Assembly: GCA_041497675.1 (NCBI GenBank)
Contig: JBGQGY010000001.1
Span: 13,727-77,726, forward strand
From: a bacterium
Lineage (GTDB): Bacteria > Sysuimicrobiota > Sysuimicrobiia > Sysuimicrobiales > Humicultoraceae
Reading direction: 5' to 3'
DNA length: 64,000 bases
A model generated the notes under the pieces. That model saw nothing but the letters and a program-made list of their open reading frames with translations, was not told the origin of the DNA and did no database searches. Of this stretch, positions 3,133 through 61,071 are shown one piece after another; positions within the stretch are counted from its first letter, which is position 1, and each line of letters opens with the position of its first letter. The translations under genes and the position numbers were made by a program.

Positions 3133-4221
3133 TCACGGGTCCTCGGCCGCCCCGAACACGACTCCGCGCCGGATCGCCACGACCACCGCCCCGCCCTCTT
3201 CGAAGGGGGTAGACGGCGGCGCTTGAACGCGCAGCGCGGCCCCCGCGGCCAGACGCACCTTGTACTCGACCAGATTGCCGAGGAAGTTGCGGACCTCGAT
3301 GTGGGCCGCCAGGCCGGTTCCGGCATCGGCGTCGCCCACGTTGCGCAGTTCCAGGTCCTCCGGCCGTATCGCCAGCAGCACCTCCCCCGTGAGCCCGGCG
3401 GGGTTCTCCGCGCGTACCTCGTATCCGTAGATCGCAAGCCGTGCCGACCCGGGTTCCCGCGTGATGACGCTGGCCGGGAGAAAGTTCATCTGGCCGATGA
3501 AGTCGGCGACAAAGCGCGACGCGGGCCGGCGGTAGATGTCCGCCGGACGGCCGATCTGTACGATACGGCCGGCCGACATGACGGCCACCCGATCGGAGAG
3601 CGCCATGGCCTCGGCCTGGTCGTGCGTGACATAGAGGACGGGGATCCGCATCCGCCGCTGCAGTTCCTTGAGCTCGAAGCGCATCTGCTCCCGCAACTTG
3701 GCGTCGAGGTTCGATAGCGGTTCGTCGAGTAGCAGGACCTCGGGGCGGCCGGCCAGCGCGCGGCCCAACGCGACGCGCTGCTGCTGGCCGCCCGACAACT
3801 GGTGCGGGTAGCGGCCGCCCAGACCGCCAAGGGCCACCAGATCGAGGATCTCGTTCACTCGTGCCGCCGTGGCCTGTCGCGACTGCGCGGCCAGCCGGAG
3901 CGGATAGCCGATGTTTGCGGCGACGGTCATGTGCGGCCATACGGCGTAGTTCTGAAACACCATCCCGAGCCGCCGCTTTTCGGGTGGCACGAAGACGCCG
4001 GCGGCCGGGGCGTTGACGAGCCGCCCGTGGATCGAGACCTCACCGCGCGTCGGGAGCTCCAGCCCCGCGACGCACCGTAACGTGGTAGTCTTGCCGCAGC
4101 CGCTCGGGCCCAGCAAGGTGAAGAACTCATCGTCTCTGATCGAGAACGACACGTCCTGCACCGCGACGGTCTCGTCGAACTGCTTCAAGAGGTTGGAGAC
4201 GTGTACAGCGTCCATCGGCAT
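3133..4221 (-). CDS. ABC transporter ATP-binding protein, PotA/FbpC/MalK type with C-terminal TOBE-like domain
   Basis: Walker A GPSGCGKTT, signature LSGGQQQRVALGRAL and Walker B LLLDEPLSNLD are present. There is no adjacent permease or binding-protein gene. Confidence 0.9.
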   Translation of the reverse strand: MPMDAVHVSNLLKQFDETVAVQDVSFSIRDDEFFTLLGPSGCGKTTTLRCVAGLELPTRGEVSIHGRLVNAPAAGVFVPPEKRRLGMVFQNYAVWPHMTVAANIGYPLRLAAQSRQATAARVNEILDLVALGGLGGRYPHQLSGGQQQRVALGRALAGRPEVLLLDEPLSNLDAKLREQMRFELKELQRRMRIPVLYVTHDQAEAMALSDRVAVMSAGRIVQIGRPADIYRRPASRFVADFIGQMNFLPASVITREPGSARLAIYGYEVRAENPAGLTGEVLLAIRPEDLELRNVGDADAGTGLAAHIEVRNFLGNLVEYKVRLAAGAALRVQAPPSTPFEEGGAVVVAIRRGVVFGAAEDP

Positions 4222-4341
4222 CCCAGGGTGTGAACGTTCCTCGATATTCCGGGGCTCCCCTGCCGCGCGTCTGGGGCCGAGGCAGGATGGGTATGGTCCG
4301 CGCAGAAACTGTGCGCCCGGGAACGGCGACCGGAGGTTGAG

Positions 4342-4767
4342 TTGGGTGCAGGGGCCGCCGTGGCGGCGAGCTTCAGAGTTGTGCGAACACTGTGGCTGGC
4401 TGAGGCTATCGTGGTGGGATTCATCTGGCTGGGCCTCCCCGCACTGCTGGCGCGGCCCGAGGCAGAGGGAGGGCCCGCGGGCGTATTCGCCCGTATCTTC
4501 ATTGCGGTCGCCATCGCGGATCTGGTCTTGGGGTGGTGGATAAGGAACCGGGCCAAGAAGGCTGGTCCTGCGCCCGCAGACGGCGCATCGCCGGCCATCA
4601 TGGGAGCGTCGCTGGTCGCCGTGACGCTCGCCCTGACGCCGGGGATCCTTGCGGCGGCGCTCTACCTAGGCTTTGGCCATGTCGATGGTCATCGCATCCT
4701 CAGCATCATGAGCCTGGCAGGGTTGTGGGTCCTGCAGCCGCGTCTTGACGAATGGACGGTGCCGTGA
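4342..4767 (+). CDS. Hypothetical small membrane protein (about 4 predicted TM segments)
   Basis: Hydrophobic segments lie in the gap between the divergent ABC ATPase and the IDH gene. No homology recognised, so this could be spurious. Confidence 0.35.
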   Translation: MGAGAAVAASFRVVRTLWLAEAIVVGFIWLGLPALLARPEAEGGPAGVFARIFIAVAIADLVLGWWIRNRAKKAGPAPADGASPAIMGASLVAVTLALTPGILAAALYLGFGHVDGHRILSIMSLAGLWVLQPRLDEWTVP

Positions 4768-5849
4768 AGATCGTCCTTCTCGAAGGTGACCAGACCGGGC
4801 AGGAACTGCTCCGGGATGCCATCCGGGTGCTCGACCCCGAGGTGGTGGGTCTGCCGTTTGTGTTTGACCGGTTCGACCTGAGCCTCGACAACCGGCGCCG
4901 CACGAAGAATGCGGTCGTCCGCGAAGCCGCAGACGCGTTGCGGGAAGCGCGCTACGGGATCAAGGCGGCCACCACCACTCCCGAAGGCGCGGGCGACGTG
5001 GGCAGCCCCAATGCGCTGCTCCGTGAATGGATCGATGCGACGGTGATCCTCCGGACGGGACGCCGGATCCCGGGTGTCCGGCCGGTGGCCGGTGTCGTGG
5101 CGCCGATCGCGGTGGTGCGCATGGGCGTGGGTGACGCCTACAACGCCCGCGAGTGGCGGGAAGGCGCCGGCGACGATGAGGTGGCGTACCGCACTACCGC
5201 CGTGACCCGCCGTCACTGCCGGGCCGTGGCGGAGTTTTCGTTCCGGCACGCGCGCCAACTGGGCGCCAAGGTGTTTGGAGGGCCCAAATACACTGTCAGC
5301 CCCGTCTACGAAGGCATGCTCAAGGAAGAAGTGGATGCTGCCGCGGCGCGTCACCCGGAGATAGCCTACGATCCCCAGTTGATCGACGCGGTGTATGCTC
5401 TGCTGTTGCAGTCCACGGGCGAGGCCCTCGTGATCCCCGCCCTGAATCGTGATGGCGATACCCTGAGCGACTTTGTGTTGCAGATGTTCGGCAGCATCGC
5501 GGGGGCTGAGTCGGTGATCCTCAGCGTTGACAAAGAGAACAATCCGAAGGTCGTGCTGGCCGAGGCGCCGCACGGCACCGCCCCCAAGTTGTTCGGTAAG
5601 AACGTCGCCAACCCGATGGCCATGATCCTGGCGTGTGCGGCTGTCACGTCCTACCTGCCGCAGGCGGCCGCGGCCTCCGTGTCGCGTGCCATCTACGAGT
5701 CGACCTTTGAGGCGGTTCAGGGCGGCGTGCGTACGCTGGATCTCGGGGGCGACGCGACGACGACGGAATTCACCGACGAAGTCATCCGCCGGCTCCGTCT
5801 GAAGCTGGACGTCTGGCGCAGCCTCGGCCGGACTAGCCCCACCTCCTGA
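4752..5849 (+). CDS. Isocitrate dehydrogenase (NADP), subfamily II (eukaryote-like) of the isocitrate/isopropylmalate dehydrogenase family
   Basis: Motif matches to type II IDH: EGDQTGQEL (EGDEMT), DLSLDNRRRTKN (DLGIENRDAT), GIKAATTTPE (KCATITPDE), RMGVGDAY, ALNRDGDTLSDFV (NYDGDVQSD), EAPHGTAP (EAAHGTVTRH). Confidence 0.65.
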   Translation: MDGAVKIVLLEGDQTGQELLRDAIRVLDPEVVGLPFVFDRFDLSLDNRRRTKNAVVREAADALREARYGIKAATTTPEGAGDVGSPNALLREWIDATVILRTGRRIPGVRPVAGVVAPIAVVRMGVGDAYNAREWREGAGDDEVAYRTTAVTRRHCRAVAEFSFRHARQLGAKVFGGPKYTVSPVYEGMLKEEVDAAAARHPEIAYDPQLIDAVYALLLQSTGEALVIPALNRDGDTLSDFVLQMFGSIAGAESVILSVDKENNPKVVLAEAPHGTAPKLFGKNVANPMAMILACAAVTSYLPQAAAASVSRAIYESTFEAVQGGVRTLDLGGDATTTEFTDEVIRRLRLKLDVWRSLGRTSPTS

Positions 5850-13256: not shown

Positions 13257-14153
13257 ATGACCGGCGAAGTGGCGGCCGTCACCGCGGCCGTGGCCTTTGG
13301 GCTCAGCACCGTCACGGCTCGGCGCTTCATGGATGCCGTCACGCCGGAGGCCGGGGCGCTGGTCAGCATCGTGATGAACGTGATCACGTTCTGGACACTG
13401 GCGGCTGTGGTGATGCTGCGAAACGGCGCGCCGCCGCTTCCCGCGCAAGCCCTGATCCTCTTCATCGTGGGTGGATTGGCGGGGACGCTGGTCGGCCGGA
13501 ATCTCTCCTACCTCAGCATCGAGCGGATCGGTCCATCGCTGCTCGTGACGATCCGGCTCAGCCAGACGATCGTCACGCTGCTGTTGGGACTGGCGTTTCT
13601 CGGCGAGCTCCCTCGGCCGTGGCAGCTTGGGGGGCTGGCGAGCGTCCTCGTTGGGCTGTGGATCAGCCTGCGGTCACGCGGGGGTGACGGACCGGTGCGA
13701 GGCGCACCGGCGGCACGCCGTCTCGATCTGGCCGCGCTCCTGCTTGCGTTTGCGAGCGCAGCGGCGTTTGCATTTGGCGACACCGCACGGCGTGCTGCGC
13801 TGATGATCGTTCCCGCGCCGGTGCTCGGCGCGGCCGTGGGGTCGTCGGCGGCGCTGGTGGCACACCTCATCTGGTCGATCACGCGTCACTCCGCGCGATG
13901 GCCCGCGGGCCCGGCGCTGCGGAGCGTCGATCTTTGGACCAGCGCGCTCTTCAATACGTTGGCGATTCTCTTGCTCTACACTGCTCTACGCTCCGCGCCG
14001 GTCGCGGTCGTCTCGACCCTCTACAACCTGCAGGTGCTGGTGGTGCTCGCAGGCAGCCGCCTGTTGTTGGGCGACCGCGAGCCGGTCGGCTCCCGTTTGA
14101 TCGGTGGATCGGTGCTGACGCTGCTGGGCACGATCATGATCTTGATGGGATGA
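13257..14153 (+). CDS. EamA/DMT family transporter
   Basis: About 10 TM helices with the two-repeat EamA organisation. Confidence 0.8.
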   Translation: MTGEVAAVTAAVAFGLSTVTARRFMDAVTPEAGALVSIVMNVITFWTLAAVVMLRNGAPPLPAQALILFIVGGLAGTLVGRNLSYLSIERIGPSLLVTIRLSQTIVTLLLGLAFLGELPRPWQLGGLASVLVGLWISLRSRGGDGPVRGAPAARRLDLAALLLAFASAAAFAFGDTARRAALMIVPAPVLGAAVGSSAALVAHLIWSITRHSARWPAGPALRSVDLWTSALFNTLAILLLYTALRSAPVAVVSTLYNLQVLVVLAGSRLLLGDREPVGSRLIGGSVLTLLGTIMILMG

Positions 14154-57386: not shown

Positions 57387-57448
57387 CTATCGGGAGTCTG
57401 CGCGGCGGCCGGAGCGTGGGCCCTGTGGATCGGTCGCGGACAGTTTTC

Positions 57449-57477
57449 TTGACACCCGAAAATCGCCGGTGATACGC
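57449..57477 (+). promoter_or_regulatory. Candidate sigma70 promoter of hrcA operon (-35 TTGACA; weak/extended -10 TGATACGCT)
   Basis: A consensus -35 lies 32 nt upstream of the CIRCE element. Confidence 0.4.
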
Positions 57478-57485
57478 TTTGAGCG

Positions 57486-57512
57486 TTAGCACTCTCGAGC
57501 GGAGAGTGCCAA
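57486..57512 (+). promoter_or_regulatory. CIRCE operator (TTAGCACTC-N9-GAGTGCCAA), HrcA binding site
   Basis: 9-bp inverted repeat with a 9-nt spacer and one mismatch to the consensus right arm GAGTGCTAA. It lies 20 nt upstream of the hrcA start. Confidence 0.8.
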
Positions 57513-57531
57513 CCGTAGGGGGCAAACGGGA

Positions 57532-58322
57532 ATGGTGGAGCTCGACGAACGCAAGCGAGCGATCCTGTGCGCCGTCGTGGAGGAGTACACGCGGTCGGCG
57601 GAGCCGGTGGGGTCAGAGCACCCGCTGGTCCGTGACCGGCTGCGCGTCAGCCCTGCCACAATCCGAAGCGCGATGGCCGGGTTGGAGGAGATGGGGCTCC
57701 TGACGCATCCTCACACGTCCGCCGGGCGCATGCCCACCGATCGCGGATACCGAACCTACGTCGACATGCTCCTCGACGGCGAGCCATTGTCGTCCCCTGA
57801 CCGACAAACGATTCGCCGCAAGATTGACGACGTGGCGGCCGAACCGACCGGTGCCGCAGGGCAGGCGGCGCGGGTCCTGGCCTCGGTGACCCAGTACCCG
57901 TCGGTCGTCGCGTCCCCTGGTTTGCAGAACCAGATCTTTCGCTCGCTTCACCTCGTGCCCTTCGGGGCGCGGAAAGTGCTCGCCGTCATTGCGACCAACT
58001 CGGGCACGTTGCGGGGGCAGGCACTCGATCTGCCCGACGACGTGGAGCCGGAAGACCTCGAGCGGCTCTCCGGCGAGATTGCGCGCTGGCCGAGGTGCTG
58101 GCCGGCGCGCCGCGACAGGGGCTGTGGATCTCAACTGGAGCCGAGAACCGTTGCGAGGAACTGCAGGCCTGCAGCCTGATCATGGCCGCCTTTGAGTGTG
58201 GTGATCAGATGGTCGGCACCGTGGGCATCGTCGGCCCGACGCGGATGCGGTACCGTCAGGCCCTGACCGCCGTGCGCTACGTGGCCGATCGACTCAGCCA
58301 GGTGCTGCGAGTCCTTGAGTAG
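57532..58322 (+). pseudogene. hrcA: hrcA, heat-inducible repressor, disrupted by a frameshift near 58081-58086 and about 75-80 aa shorter in the middle than typical HrcA
   Basis: The N-terminal 184 aa (wHTH ...SATIRSAMAGLEEMGLL..., VLAVIATNSGTLRG) are in frame A, which stops at 58179. The conserved C-terminal about 80 aa (GLWISTGAEN...CSLIMAAF...VGIVGPTRMRY) are in frame B, open from 57828 to 58322. Removing a single base would join them as ...LSGEIARLAEVLAGAPRQGLWIS.... Confidence 0.6.
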
Positions 58323-59436
58323 TCCCCGGTCGGCCCGCGACCTCTACGAAATCCTTGGCGTCGAGCGCGGCGCGACACAAGATGAGATCAAAGCGGCCTA
58401 CCGCCGTCTGGCGCGCGAGACCCACCCCGACGTCCGCCGCGATGATCCTCACGCCACGGAGCGCTTCAAGGAAGTGAACGAAGCCTACGCCGTCCTGAGC
58501 GATCCGGATAAGCGCGACGACTATGATCGGTACGGGCAGGTTGGCCGGGGTGGGTCCTCTGATCCCTTCCAAGGTCCCGTTGGGCCGTTCGGCGACTTGT
58601 TCGACCTGTTCTTCGGTGGGCACGCCGCGTCCGCGCGGCCCGACCGCTCGGGCCCAGAGCGCGGCTCGGACCTACGGCTCGACATCGAGCTCACGCTCGA
58701 GGAGGTGGCCTCCGGTGTCGAACGTCAGGTGACCGCCGGGCGGCTCGAGACGTGCCCAGCGTGTTTTGGTACGGGGGCCGAGCGAGGCGCGACCCCGGAG
58801 CGATGCCCGACGTGCCAGGGGGCCGGTGAAGTCCGCCGGACGCAGCGCACGGTGCTTGGCCACATGACGCAGATCGGGTCGTGCCCGCAGTGCAGCGGCA
58901 CGGGCACGTACATCGCCAAACCGTGTGCGAAGTGCCGGGGCGCGGGCCGGCTGGAGACGCGGCGCGAGGTGACGGTCTCGGTGCCGGCCGGGGTTGAGCA
59001 TGGGATGCACCTGCGTCTGGCGAGTGAGGGCGAAGCCGGGGCGCGCGGCGGCGCACGAGGCGATCTGTTTGTCGTCATCCACGTGAAGCCCCATGAGATC
59101 TTTGAACGGCGCGGGACCGATCTGTCCTGCGAGGTAAAAGTATCGATGGTCCAGGCGGCGATCGGTGACGAGATCCGCATCCCGACGCTCACCGGCGAAG
59201 CGACGCTGACCGTGCCCCCGGGTACGCAGCCGGGCGCGAGGCTCACGATGCGGGGTCAGGGGTTGCCGGGGGTGCGCGGCGGTCGCGGCGACCTGCACGC
59301 GGCGATCCGCGTTGAGATCCCGCGCAACCTGACGGCCGAGCAGCGTGCACTGCTGCAGGAGTTCGGCGGGCTGCGCGCTGATCGTCCGGGCAAGCGCAAG
59401 ACGGTCCTGAAGAAAGTCAAAGACCTGCTGCAGTAA
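58315..59436 (+). CDS. dnaJ: Molecular chaperone DnaJ
   Basis: TTG start overlapping the hrcA stop. J domain (DLYEILGV...HPD), G/F region, four CxxCxGxG zinc-finger repeats, C-terminal domains. Confidence 0.95.
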   Translation: MSSPRSARDLYEILGVERGATQDEIKAAYRRLARETHPDVRRDDPHATERFKEVNEAYAVLSDPDKRDDYDRYGQVGRGGSSDPFQGPVGPFGDLFDLFFGGHAASARPDRSGPERGSDLRLDIELTLEEVASGVERQVTAGRLETCPACFGTGAERGATPERCPTCQGAGEVRRTQRTVLGHMTQIGSCPQCSGTGTYIAKPCAKCRGAGRLETRREVTVSVPAGVEHGMHLRLASEGEAGARGGARGDLFVVIHVKPHEIFERRGTDLSCEVKVSMVQAAIGDEIRIPTLTGEATLTVPPGTQPGARLTMRGQGLPGVRGGRGDLHAAIRVEIPRNLTAEQRALLQEFGGLRADRPGKRKTVLKKVKDLLQ

Positions 59437-59440
59437 CCCC

Positions 59441-60325
59441 GTGCGGTGGATTGAAGTGTCCGTGGACGCGACCCGATCGTGGGTAGAAGCGGTGGGGGAC
59501 GCGCTCCTGCAGTACTGCCCGCAAGGGTTCTCGGAGAGCGCAGCCGGCCGGGCGGGTCACCGCCTGCTCCGCGCCTACCTCCCCACAGGGGTGGATGGTC
59601 GCGCGAGATTGCGGTTGCTCCGGCGAGCGGTCGTCAGGTTGGCGGGTCGACCACGCGTGCGGGCACGCGTGGTGCATGATGCGGGATGGGCGGCGCTGTG
59701 GAAGATCCACGCGCACCCGTTCCGGGTCGGGCGTGTCCTGATCCAGCCCAGCGGGGGGACGGTTCACGCGGATCGTCACGGCGACGGTCGAGCGGCCGGC
59801 GGTGCCGCTCACGTCGTGGTCAGGCTCGACCCCGGTATGGCCTTCGGCAGCGGTGAGCATGCCTCGACGCAGTTGTGTCTGTCGGCGATCGACCGGTTTG
59901 TCACACGCCGATCGGTGCTGATCGACCTCGGAACCGGATCGGGGATTCTGGCGATCGCCGCCGCGCGGTTCGGGGCGCGTCGCGTGCTGGCGATCGACAA
60001 CGACCCGCTTGCGGTGGCCGTCGCACGCGCAAACGTCAGGCGAAACGGTGTCGCGCGCCGGGTCACGGTGCGCCGCGGGGAGGGGCTGGCGGGGGTTCGG
60101 CGCCGCGCCGACCTCATCGTGGCGAATCTGACAGCGGACATCTTGCCCGGGGTGTTGGACGACGTCGCGCGGTGTCTCGTCCCCGGCGGCGGGTTCGTCG
60201 CGTCGGGGTTCGGCAGCCCGCGGGTCGCGGAGGTCCGACGGCGCATTCGGGCGGCCGGGCTGCGCGTGGTGGCCACACGGCGCGTGCGTGGATGGTGCGC
60301 TGTGCACGCGGCCAGCAGGCCATGA
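59441..60325 (+). CDS. prmA: Ribosomal protein L11 methyltransferase
   Basis: GTG start. FGSGEHASTQLCL and DLGTGSGILAIAA SAM motifs. Conserved position after dnaJ. Confidence 0.85.
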   Translation: MRWIEVSVDATRSWVEAVGDALLQYCPQGFSESAAGRAGHRLLRAYLPTGVDGRARLRLLRRAVVRLAGRPRVRARVVHDAGWAALWKIHAHPFRVGRVLIQPSGGTVHADRHGDGRAAGGAAHVVVRLDPGMAFGSGEHASTQLCLSAIDRFVTRRSVLIDLGTGSGILAIAAARFGARRVLAIDNDPLAVAVARANVRRNGVARRVTVRRGEGLAGVRRRADLIVANLTADILPGVLDDVARCLVPGGGFVASGFGSPRVAEVRRRIRAAGLRVVATRRVRGWCAVHAASRP

Positions 60326-61071
60326 GCGCGGCCGAGTCCCCCCGGGTCCGGAGGCGCTTTTTCGCACCTGCGGCGGCCCTCGACAGTGAGCGGGTCGTTT
60401 TTCTGCCGCGGGAGGCGCATCACATCGCGCACGTGCTGCGGCTGCGGCCCGGCGCGCGACTGGTCGCGTTCGACGGCGCGCGTGAGGTTGACGTCGAGCT
60501 CGACACCGTGAGCCCTGAGGTCGTGGCGCGGCGCCTCGGCACCCCGGCCCCGTCGCGGCGACCGATTGAGATCGCATTGCTGCAGGGCGTCGCGCGCGGT
60601 CCGAGGATGGATCTCGTCGTCCGCATGGCCACGGAGATCGGGATCTCCGCGATCCATCCGGTGCTGACGAGCCGCGCCGTGGCCGATCCGGCACCCGCCC
60701 GTGTGGACCGGTGGCGCCGGATCGCGCTGGAATCCGCCCGCCAGTGTGGACGCGCCGATCTGCCGGACATTCATCCTCCGGCGAGTCTCAGCGAATCGCT
60801 CGCGGCCCTCGGCCCGGTGGATCTCTTGTTGGTCCCCTGGGAAGAGGAGTCGCGGCCGATTGGGACGGTGCTGGCCGACCGCGCGTGTGCGACCGTCGCC
60901 GTGGTCATCGGGCCCGAGGGCGGTTTGACTCTGGGAGAGGTCGACCTCGCACGGCGCGCCGGGGGCGAGACAGTGTCTCTCGGGCCCTTGATCCTGCGCA
61001 CGGAGACCGCCGGGCTCGTGGCGGCGGCGATGATCATCTACGAGCGTCTGCTCCGCCCCGCGCCACGGTAG
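60322..61071 (+). CDS. rsmE: 16S rRNA (uracil1498-N3)-methyltransferase RsmE
   Basis: ATG overlaps the prmA stop as ATGA. PUA-like N-terminus and SPOUT C-terminal motifs (VVIGPEGGLT, PLILRTETA). Confidence 0.85.
   Translation: MSAAESPRVRRRFFAPAAALDSERVVFLPREAHHIAHVLRLRPGARLVAFDGAREVDVELDTVSPEVVARRLGTPAPSRRPIEIALLQGVARGPRMDLVVRMATEIGISAIHPVLTSRAVADPAPARVDRWRRIALESARQCGRADLPDIHPPASLSESLAALGPVDLLLVPWEEESRPIGTVLADRACATVAVVIGPEGGLTLGEVDLARRAGGETVSLGPLILRTETAGLVAAAMIIYERLLRPAPR

Follow-up and report, generated by a model that had tools for sequence, protein, structure and literature searches.

A very probable, evolutionarily young hrcA pseudogene with a 241-bp deletion in a bacterium of the Humicultoraceae

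The hrcA locus and the 241-bp deletion

The stretch of DNA analysed here (the window; 64,000 nucleotides, positions 13,727 to 77,726 of the forward strand of contig JBGQGY010000001.1, assembly GCA_041497675.1) comes from an uncultivated bacterium of the family Humicultoraceae and contains hrcA, the gene of the heat-shock repressor that acts through the CIRCE operator (controlling inverted repeat of chaperone expression), at the head of a putative, tightly packed operon hrcA-dnaJ-prmA-rsmE (Table 1). The coding sequence of hrcA is distributed over two frames. The open reading frame (ORF) 57532–58179 encodes 215 residues, of which the first 184 are those of HrcA and the last 31 form an out-of-frame tail, and the −1 frame, after a stop at 57825–57827, stays open up to the TAG at 58320–58322. 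An earlier note on this DNA, made from the sequence alone, had described a first frame that runs into a stop at 58179 and a −1 frame open to 58322, and its coordinates all hold. The 215-residue product matches the family profile TIGR00331 (hrcA) at positions 1–178 of 338 (E = 1.3e-51) with 176.1 bits, which falls short of the curated cut-off of 197.2 bits; it also matches PF03444, the HrcA winged-helix domain, at residues 4–75 (E = 3.3e-5), and PF01628 in its first third. The last 65–70 residues of the −1 frame match TIGR00331 positions 273–337 (E = 2.6e-14, 53.5 bits), with this C-terminal piece matching PF01628 positions 159–213, and about 94 positions of TIGR00331 (179–272) remain unmatched between the two parts. 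Joined artificially, the parts give 264 residues, the length that the earlier note had foreseen for a repaired hrcA, and score 230 bits on the profile; the intact protein of a relative, P0122, scores 276.7 bits over positions 1–337. No single continuous ORF in the window spans the whole TIGR00331 profile above the cut-off.

Table 1. Features at the hrcA locus (positions within the window)
Feature	Position	Strand	Description
MFS (major facilitator superfamily) transporter gene remnant	57391–57452	+	Last ~20 codons, ending in ...AAAGAWALWIGRGQFS and a stop; tblastn and alignment with L031, L008 and L017
Putative sigma-A/sigma-70-type promoter	57449–57478	+	TTGACA (57449–57454), 18-nt spacer, TACGCT (57473–57478)
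CIRCE operator, predicted HrcA binding site	57486–57512	+	TTAGCACTC-N9-GAGTGCCAA, 1 mismatch to consensus
AGGGGG, Shine-Dalgarno-like	57517–57522	+	Ahead of the hrcA start
hrcA 5′ part	57532–58082	+	Codons 1–183 plus bases 1 and 2 of codon 184; covers winged helix-turn-helix, linker, first GAF segment and, of the inserted domain, three strands and helix 1
Deletion junction	58083–58086	+	GCGC microhomology common to both breakpoints
hrcA 3′ part, −1 frame	58083–58322	+	Last base of codon 264, then codons 265–343; translation ALAEVLAGAPRQGLWISTGAEN...VADRLSQVLRVLE; original stop TAG 58320–58322; out of reach of the start codon
Out-of-frame tail of the truncated product	58087–58179	+	WPRCWPARRDRGCGSQLEPRTVARNCRPAA; ends at TGA 58177–58179
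AGGTG, Shine-Dalgarno-like	58300–58304	+	10 nt ahead of dnaJ
dnaJ	58315–59436	+	373 aa, intact; Pfam domains on the identical gene of L001
prmA	59456–60325	+	289 aa, intact; gene call and Pfam on L001, ORF list
rsmE	60322–61071	+	249 aa, intact; start overlaps the prmA stop; gene call and Pfam on L001, ORF list

Relatives of the locus were found by scanning species-representative genomes and metagenome contigs with the N-terminal part of hrcA. A protein search with the N-terminal 185 residues gave a best match of 69% identity and did not return the near-identical cluster, whose members were obtained instead by the related-locus scan and by look-up of the 90% protein cluster. The close relatives comprise L008, a metagenome-assembled genome (MAG; SRR11839388_concoct_9), together with L015, L016 and L017, and the more distant ones L018 and the pair L009 and L010, which are Candidatus Fervidifonticultor octavus and sextus. 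The Candidatus Fervidifonticultor species are the nearest named relatives (62–63% HrcA identity, same synteny) and belong to the phylum Candidatus Sysuimicrobiota, formerly CSP1-3, family Humicultoraceae (PMC11604079). Judged by these matches, the organism of the window probably belongs to that phylum too. The gene order murJ-(MFS)-hrcA-dnaJ-prmA-rsmE is shared by the window and by L008, L009, L010, L017, L023, L027 and L031. In L008, L015, L017, L018, L009, L010, L034 and L035, HrcA is a continuous protein of 342–344 residues encoded in the same synteny; in L016, hrcA is cut by the contig end, with the middle region present. When the gene was tested as a unitary pseudogene, L008, L015, L034 and L035 were found to carry intact 343-residue orthologues at the locus with 94–97% nucleotide identity, and the window gene was found to carry a disabling lesion, consisting of the 241-bp deletion, the stop at 58177–58179 and the loss of 80 codons.

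Indeed, base-by-base alignment of the window with L008 contains one gap of exactly 241 bp (3 × 80 + 1) and shows ~96% identity elsewhere, the 5′ part of hrcA being 96% identical at the nucleotide level to the intact genes of L008 and L015. Alignments with L015 and L016 gave the same breakpoints and the same GCGC microhomology, which is flanked by ...GAGATTAC-GCGC-CGGCTG... on the left and ...GCCACG-GCGC-TGGCCG... on the right; the placement is accordingly ambiguous, with the last retained left base lying anywhere within 58082–58086. The lost segment corresponds to nucleotides 552–792 of the 1032-nt ancestral coding sequence, that is, codons 185–264 of the 343-residue protein. The earlier note had estimated an internal deletion of roughly 240(±1) bp and a loss of about 75–80 residues from the central region, and both figures are borne out by the alignment with the full-length orthologues of close relatives, in which the window gene has one gap and lacks 80 codons. 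The GCGCGC run near 58081–58086 to which that note had drawn attention is where the junction sits, but the separate one-base indel proposed there is not required, because the single 241-bp deletion accounts for the 80 missing codons as well as the frame shift. Collectively, it may be concluded that hrcA is here very probably a genuine, evolutionarily young pseudogene arising from one 241-bp deletion, and the pseudogene reading of the earlier note is upheld, since an out-of-frame deletion of this size explains both the lost residues and the frame shift. In the proposed course of events, one microhomology-mediated deletion between the GCGC copies would have removed codons 185–264 and set the downstream frame off by one; translation from the normal start would then yield a 215-residue product with a whole winged helix, a partial inserted dimerising domain, and a 31-residue nonsense tail.

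What the deletion removed was examined on an AlphaFold model of P0122, the protein of an intact close relative (mean predicted local distance difference test score, 83.6; predicted template modelling score, 0.80), which shares 98% identity with the intact proteins aligned to it. A literature search for published HrcA domain boundaries gave nothing usable, and the model and its match to 1STZ, the Thermotoga maritima HrcA and the only solved HrcA, were used instead (Foldseek E = 1.5e-21, template modelling score 0.64–0.68; sequence search E = 1.3e-20). The model has a winged helix at residues ~1–80, then linker helices, followed by strands 135–143, 148–155 and 160–166 and helices 173–187, 197–204 and 208–227, which we take to be the inserted dimerising domain of the 1STZ description that Liu and colleagues reportedly gave in 2005. 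The rest of the GAF-like domain comprises strand 232–236, helices 238–243, 250–261 and 263–271, strands within 278–316, and helix 321–342. On this model, the deleted residues 185–264 comprise, in the inserted domain, the last part of helix 173–187 and both helices behind it and, in the GAF-like domain, one strand and two helices with the conserved ...VEGxxxLLxEPEF... block. Since the deletion crosses domain boundaries, it is not a clean domain excision, and the protein would probably not fold even had the reading frame been kept. The 215-residue product, from which nearly the whole second half of the GAF-like domain is missing, should not form a dimeric GroEL-dependent repressor.

Promoter, CIRCE and the downstream operon

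The promoter of hrcA at 57449–57478 is proposed from conservation alone. Its motif, with a TG at 57470–57471, is kept in all relatives, including Candidatus Fervidifonticultor and a more distant clade with naturally short HrcA (described below), and it stayed below threshold in a consensus promoter scan. Just downstream lies the CIRCE (TTAGCACTCTCGAGCGGAGAGTGCCAA in full), for which the consensus used was TTAGCACTC-N9-GAGTGCTAA; such a match occurred in 0 of 100 shuffles, and the element is also present in the relatives. The CIRCE promoter to which the earlier note had assigned transcription of dnaJ-prmA-rsmE, with their derepression on loss of HrcA, has its operator at 57486–57512, with one mismatch. 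No terminator-like site was found between hrcA, dnaJ, prmA and rsmE, one being present upstream at 57423–57439, and Rfam and tRNA scans gave nothing near the hrcA locus. In the window, as in L008 and L017, dnaJ has a TTG start that overlaps the stop codon of the undeleted hrcA frame (cTTGAGTAG). The truncated frame terminates 136 nt ahead of the dnaJ start, so that any translational coupling between hrcA and dnaJ would be lost in this allele.

In several respects the locus resembles known HrcA/CIRCE systems (TIGR00331; PF03444 and PF01628): it has the winged-helix domain and the conserved C-terminal block, and its CIRCE stands just downstream of a sigma-A-type promoter, the autoregulatory place at the head of a chaperone operon. 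Unlike systems such as the hrcA-grpE-dnaK-dnaJ operon of Bacillus subtilis, however, the coding sequence in the window is broken by a 241-bp out-of-frame deletion, and the operon is without grpE-dnaK, as in the relatives. Null mutants of hrcA in B. subtilis, Synechocystis and other bacteria are viable and express their CIRCE-controlled chaperone operons constitutively. By the precedent of these mutants, destruction of the repressor with promoter and CIRCE intact would be expected to make the operon constitutive. Presumably, the promoter, no longer repressed through CIRCE, would still drive dnaJ-prmA-rsmE, and other CIRCE-controlled operons, if any, would be affected as well, leading to constitutive chaperone expression. 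The consequence would be the same as in the laboratory null mutants, from which the lesion in the window differs in having arisen in nature, where it seems to be fixed in a single environmental lineage.

Weighing the pseudogene reading and the age of the deletion

The identical 215-residue product is encoded on seven further contigs from separate samples, namely Logan contigs from assemblies of SRR35969122, SRR29604911 and SRR29605738, contigs of JGI 3300052992 and 3300053056, and the NCBI MAGs GCA_041492865.1 and GCA_041485865.1. Over up to 14 kb, these contigs share 97.9–99.9% identity with the window, and their hrcA is that of the window save one synonymous change in L005. It is scarcely credible that the hrcA of this genome is truly intact and that the deletion or frame shift was created in assembly, even though the source is probably a metagenome-assembled contig (a 126.7-kb NCBI contig carries the product) and a related contig, L033, is clearly full of indel errors. 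The identical junction recurs on the seven other contigs, which stem from different samples and three different pipelines; moreover, the lesion spans 241 bp and is no homopolymer indel, the flanking repeat of 4 nt is much shorter than any assembler k-mer, and the genes adjoining hrcA are intact on all these contigs. The sequencing error that the earlier note had kept in view is hence rejected, the same junction having been found with other samples and other assemblers.

Whether the truncated product retains some function was considered next to the possibility that the two frames are read as one. Partial function, with the 215-residue product still binding CIRCE as a weak or GroEL-independent repressor, would be in line with the intact winged helix and the preserved beta-sheet and first helix of the dimerising domain, with the near-unchanged N-terminal 184 residues (few substitutions) behind a kept start codon, ribosome-binding site and CIRCE, and with the lack of any further disabling mutation of the N-terminal part in all 8 contigs. 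The fragment, however, has lost three of the dimerising-domain helices together with the greater part of the GAF-like domain, and HrcA reportedly binds the inverted repeat as a dimer, as described for 1STZ; the youth of the deletion explains the clean N-terminus equally well, and five of the seven sister contigs are already substituted at a conserved CIRCE position. We regard such residual repression as improbable. Still less can be said for a functional HrcA of about 264 residues to which programmed ribosomal frameshifting or transcriptional slippage at the junction would give rise; this is highly improbable, although the joined sequence keeps 230 bits on TIGR00331 and although, in the more distant clade, HrcA proteins of 243–248 residues occur naturally in frame, at loci of the same synteny that are preceded by a perfect CIRCE. 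An X_XXY_YYZ heptamer is absent in any frame of the 350-nt overlap (57828–58179), the sole homopolymer of at least 5 bases is a GGGGG 70 nt upstream of the junction, and the two-frame arrangement is not conserved, the close relatives having single-frame, full-length genes; the window gene, moreover, keeps half of the inserted domain and loses the ...NILKQPEF... block. The unusual short HrcA that the earlier note had allowed for is rejected on like grounds: close relatives have 342–344 residues, there is no slippery site, and the deletion crosses domain boundaries.

Some points weigh against the pseudogene with a derepressed operon. Loss of the repressor and the ensuing derepression would follow from family knowledge and gene layout, from which both are drawn. 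The ratio of non-synonymous to synonymous changes (N/S) on the window branch is no higher than in the intact sisters, so that decay after the deletion is not yet visible. An intact allele may co-exist in the same populations; this is qualified by the finding that no intact protein among the 15 of 19 members of the 90% cluster that were listed has the private residues of the window lineage, and hence no intact allele of the window haplotype was seen. Finally, the DNA inspected amounts to 64 kb of the genome, and an intact hrcA elsewhere might control the regulon and leave the deletion without phenotype. Such a redundant copy is nonetheless unlikely, as the locus is the syntenic orthologue of hrcA in every relative found and no second HrcA-like sequence lies inside the window, where signatures of dnaK, groEL and a second hrcA were all lacking. 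The gene is normally single-copy.

The pseudogene appears to be recent. Apart from the deletion, neither half of hrcA contains an additional stop or indel, and since no further lesions have accumulated, the loss would be of recent date. Private changes on the window branch amount to 9 synonymous and 3–4 non-synonymous ones (Q161R, R163Q, I282T and T307M, with I282T falling in the conserved ISIGxEN block), as against N/S values of 1/8–12, 2/5–7 and 5/12 in the sister lineages, the events being few throughout. Because the window value is indistinguishable from those of the intact sisters, most of the branch would have been under purifying selection, which again suggests a recent deletion.

A related observation concerns the deletion-bearing haplotypes. 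The two flanks of L004 diverge from the window by 2.3%, but not one difference occurs over the 1663 bp between 57423 and 59087 (Poisson probability ~2e-17), where the promoter, hrcA with its deletion and two thirds of dnaJ lie. This suggests either that homologous recombination carried the deletion allele from one strain background to another or that L004 is a mosaic consensus contig.

In the more distant clade, represented by loci L023–L026, naturally short HrcA proteins of 243–248 residues (P0011, P0046 and P0039) are encoded at L023:2440-3171, L024:2516-3247 and L026:1929-2675. P0011 and P0039 are without aligned columns ~139–237, that is, the inserted domain, the limits of the gap differing slightly between the two; the ...NILKQPEF... 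block is retained. The genes are in frame, conserved between diverged sequences, and each stands behind a perfect consensus CIRCE. They share with the window the synteny murJ-hrcA-dnaJ-prmA and the absence of part of the same central region; in contrast to these proteins, from which the inserted domain is cleanly removed in frame, the window gene is out of frame and has its boundaries at residues 185 and 264. If the short proteins are functional, HrcA can work without the inserted, dimerising domain.

Other lesions in the species complex

Further disrupted hrcA alleles were taken from the 90% cluster of the 215-residue product and belong to lineages 93–96% identical to the window. Four identical Logan contigs (L027–L030, from ERR14652013, ERR14652019, ERR14652020 and ERR14652025) carry a 630-bp in-frame deletion that joins ATGGTGGA to GCTAGAAGAG (codon 3/4 to codon ~215) and thereby removes residues ~5–214. 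It leaves a 133-residue remnant without the DNA-binding domain (L027:4001-4402), with intact neighbours and the overlap of hrcA stop and dnaJ start preserved, in a lineage ~94% identical to the window. As the 241-bp and the 630-bp deletions each keep sequence that is absent in the other, they are independent events. A third lesion is found in L031 and L032 (both at 4001-4888; ERZ27256953 and ERZ27254858), two MEGAHIT contigs (60 kb and 17 kb) on which the neighbouring genes are intact and in which the same single T is gone from GATCTGCTC at codon 258/259, giving 295-residue products; each haplotype is represented by one assembly. These haplotypes also exist with intact hrcA (L015 and L034 for L031, L016 and L035 for L032), and the 1-nt deletion may be an artefact or else a loss-of-function allele that arose repeatedly or was spread by recombination. 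The alleles of L027–L032 resemble that of the window in affecting the same gene at the same locus, with neighbours intact and promoter and CIRCE retained, and differ from it in the lesion itself, which is of 630 bp in L027–L030 and of 1 nt in L031 and L032. The frameshifted hrcA of L033 (P0123) was dropped from this set, nearly every gene on that contig being fragmented.

In the intact and otherwise L016-like hrcA of L035 (L035:3001-4032), 11 substitutions, of which three are non-synonymous (E>G, V>E and W>R), crowd into ~130 nt (alignment columns 866–995) about the position at which L031 and L032 lack the T. The cluster looks like an imported tract or local relaxation.

Changes are also seen in the operator. 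Five of the seven other contigs bearing the 241-bp deletion have T>A at 57487, the conserved second CIRCE position, and the lineage of L016, L032 and L035 has lost the CIRCE right arm (GAG--CGCCGC), though the hrcA ORF is intact in L016 and L035. The T>A substitution, considered as proof of operator decay, carries no more than anecdotal weight, since the CIRCE ahead of the intact hrcA of L016 is damaged even further.

Upstream of hrcA, a complete 370-residue MFS_1 gene lies between murJ and hrcA in L008, L017, L027 and L031, of which ~60 nt are left in the window; L004 has 31 nt more than the window, and L016 and L032 have more still, which suggests that the MFS gene was eroded stepwise. The TGA stop of the remnant (57450–57452) overlaps the −35 box of the putative hrcA promoter. 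The locus has been hit by repeated deletions, with hrcA struck at least twice and probably three times.

Three lesions in at least three lineages, the operator changes, the intact neighbours and the L004 tract could mean that there is selection for loss of the repressor. This idea, that recurrent independent dismantling of HrcA-CIRCE reflects selection for repressor loss and constitutive chaperone expression and not neutral decay, is tentative and in our judgement doubtful; whether relaxed constraint accounts for the recurrent loss is the alternative to be weighed. A literature search for natural loss of hrcA gave nothing directly relevant.

For annotation, hrcA in this genome should be flagged as disrupted, with neither a "repair" of the frame nor a call of two genes. 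Taken singly, the case is ordinary gene loss in a metagenome-derived genome, and it is the recurrence among sister lineages that makes it mildly to moderately interesting. Together, the broken alleles and the trimmed in-frame form bear on which parts of HrcA, in particular the inserted dimerising domain, its function needs; as a natural experiment, this uncultivated group could show if there are habitats in which the HrcA-CIRCE heat-shock circuit can be dispensed with or is selected against.

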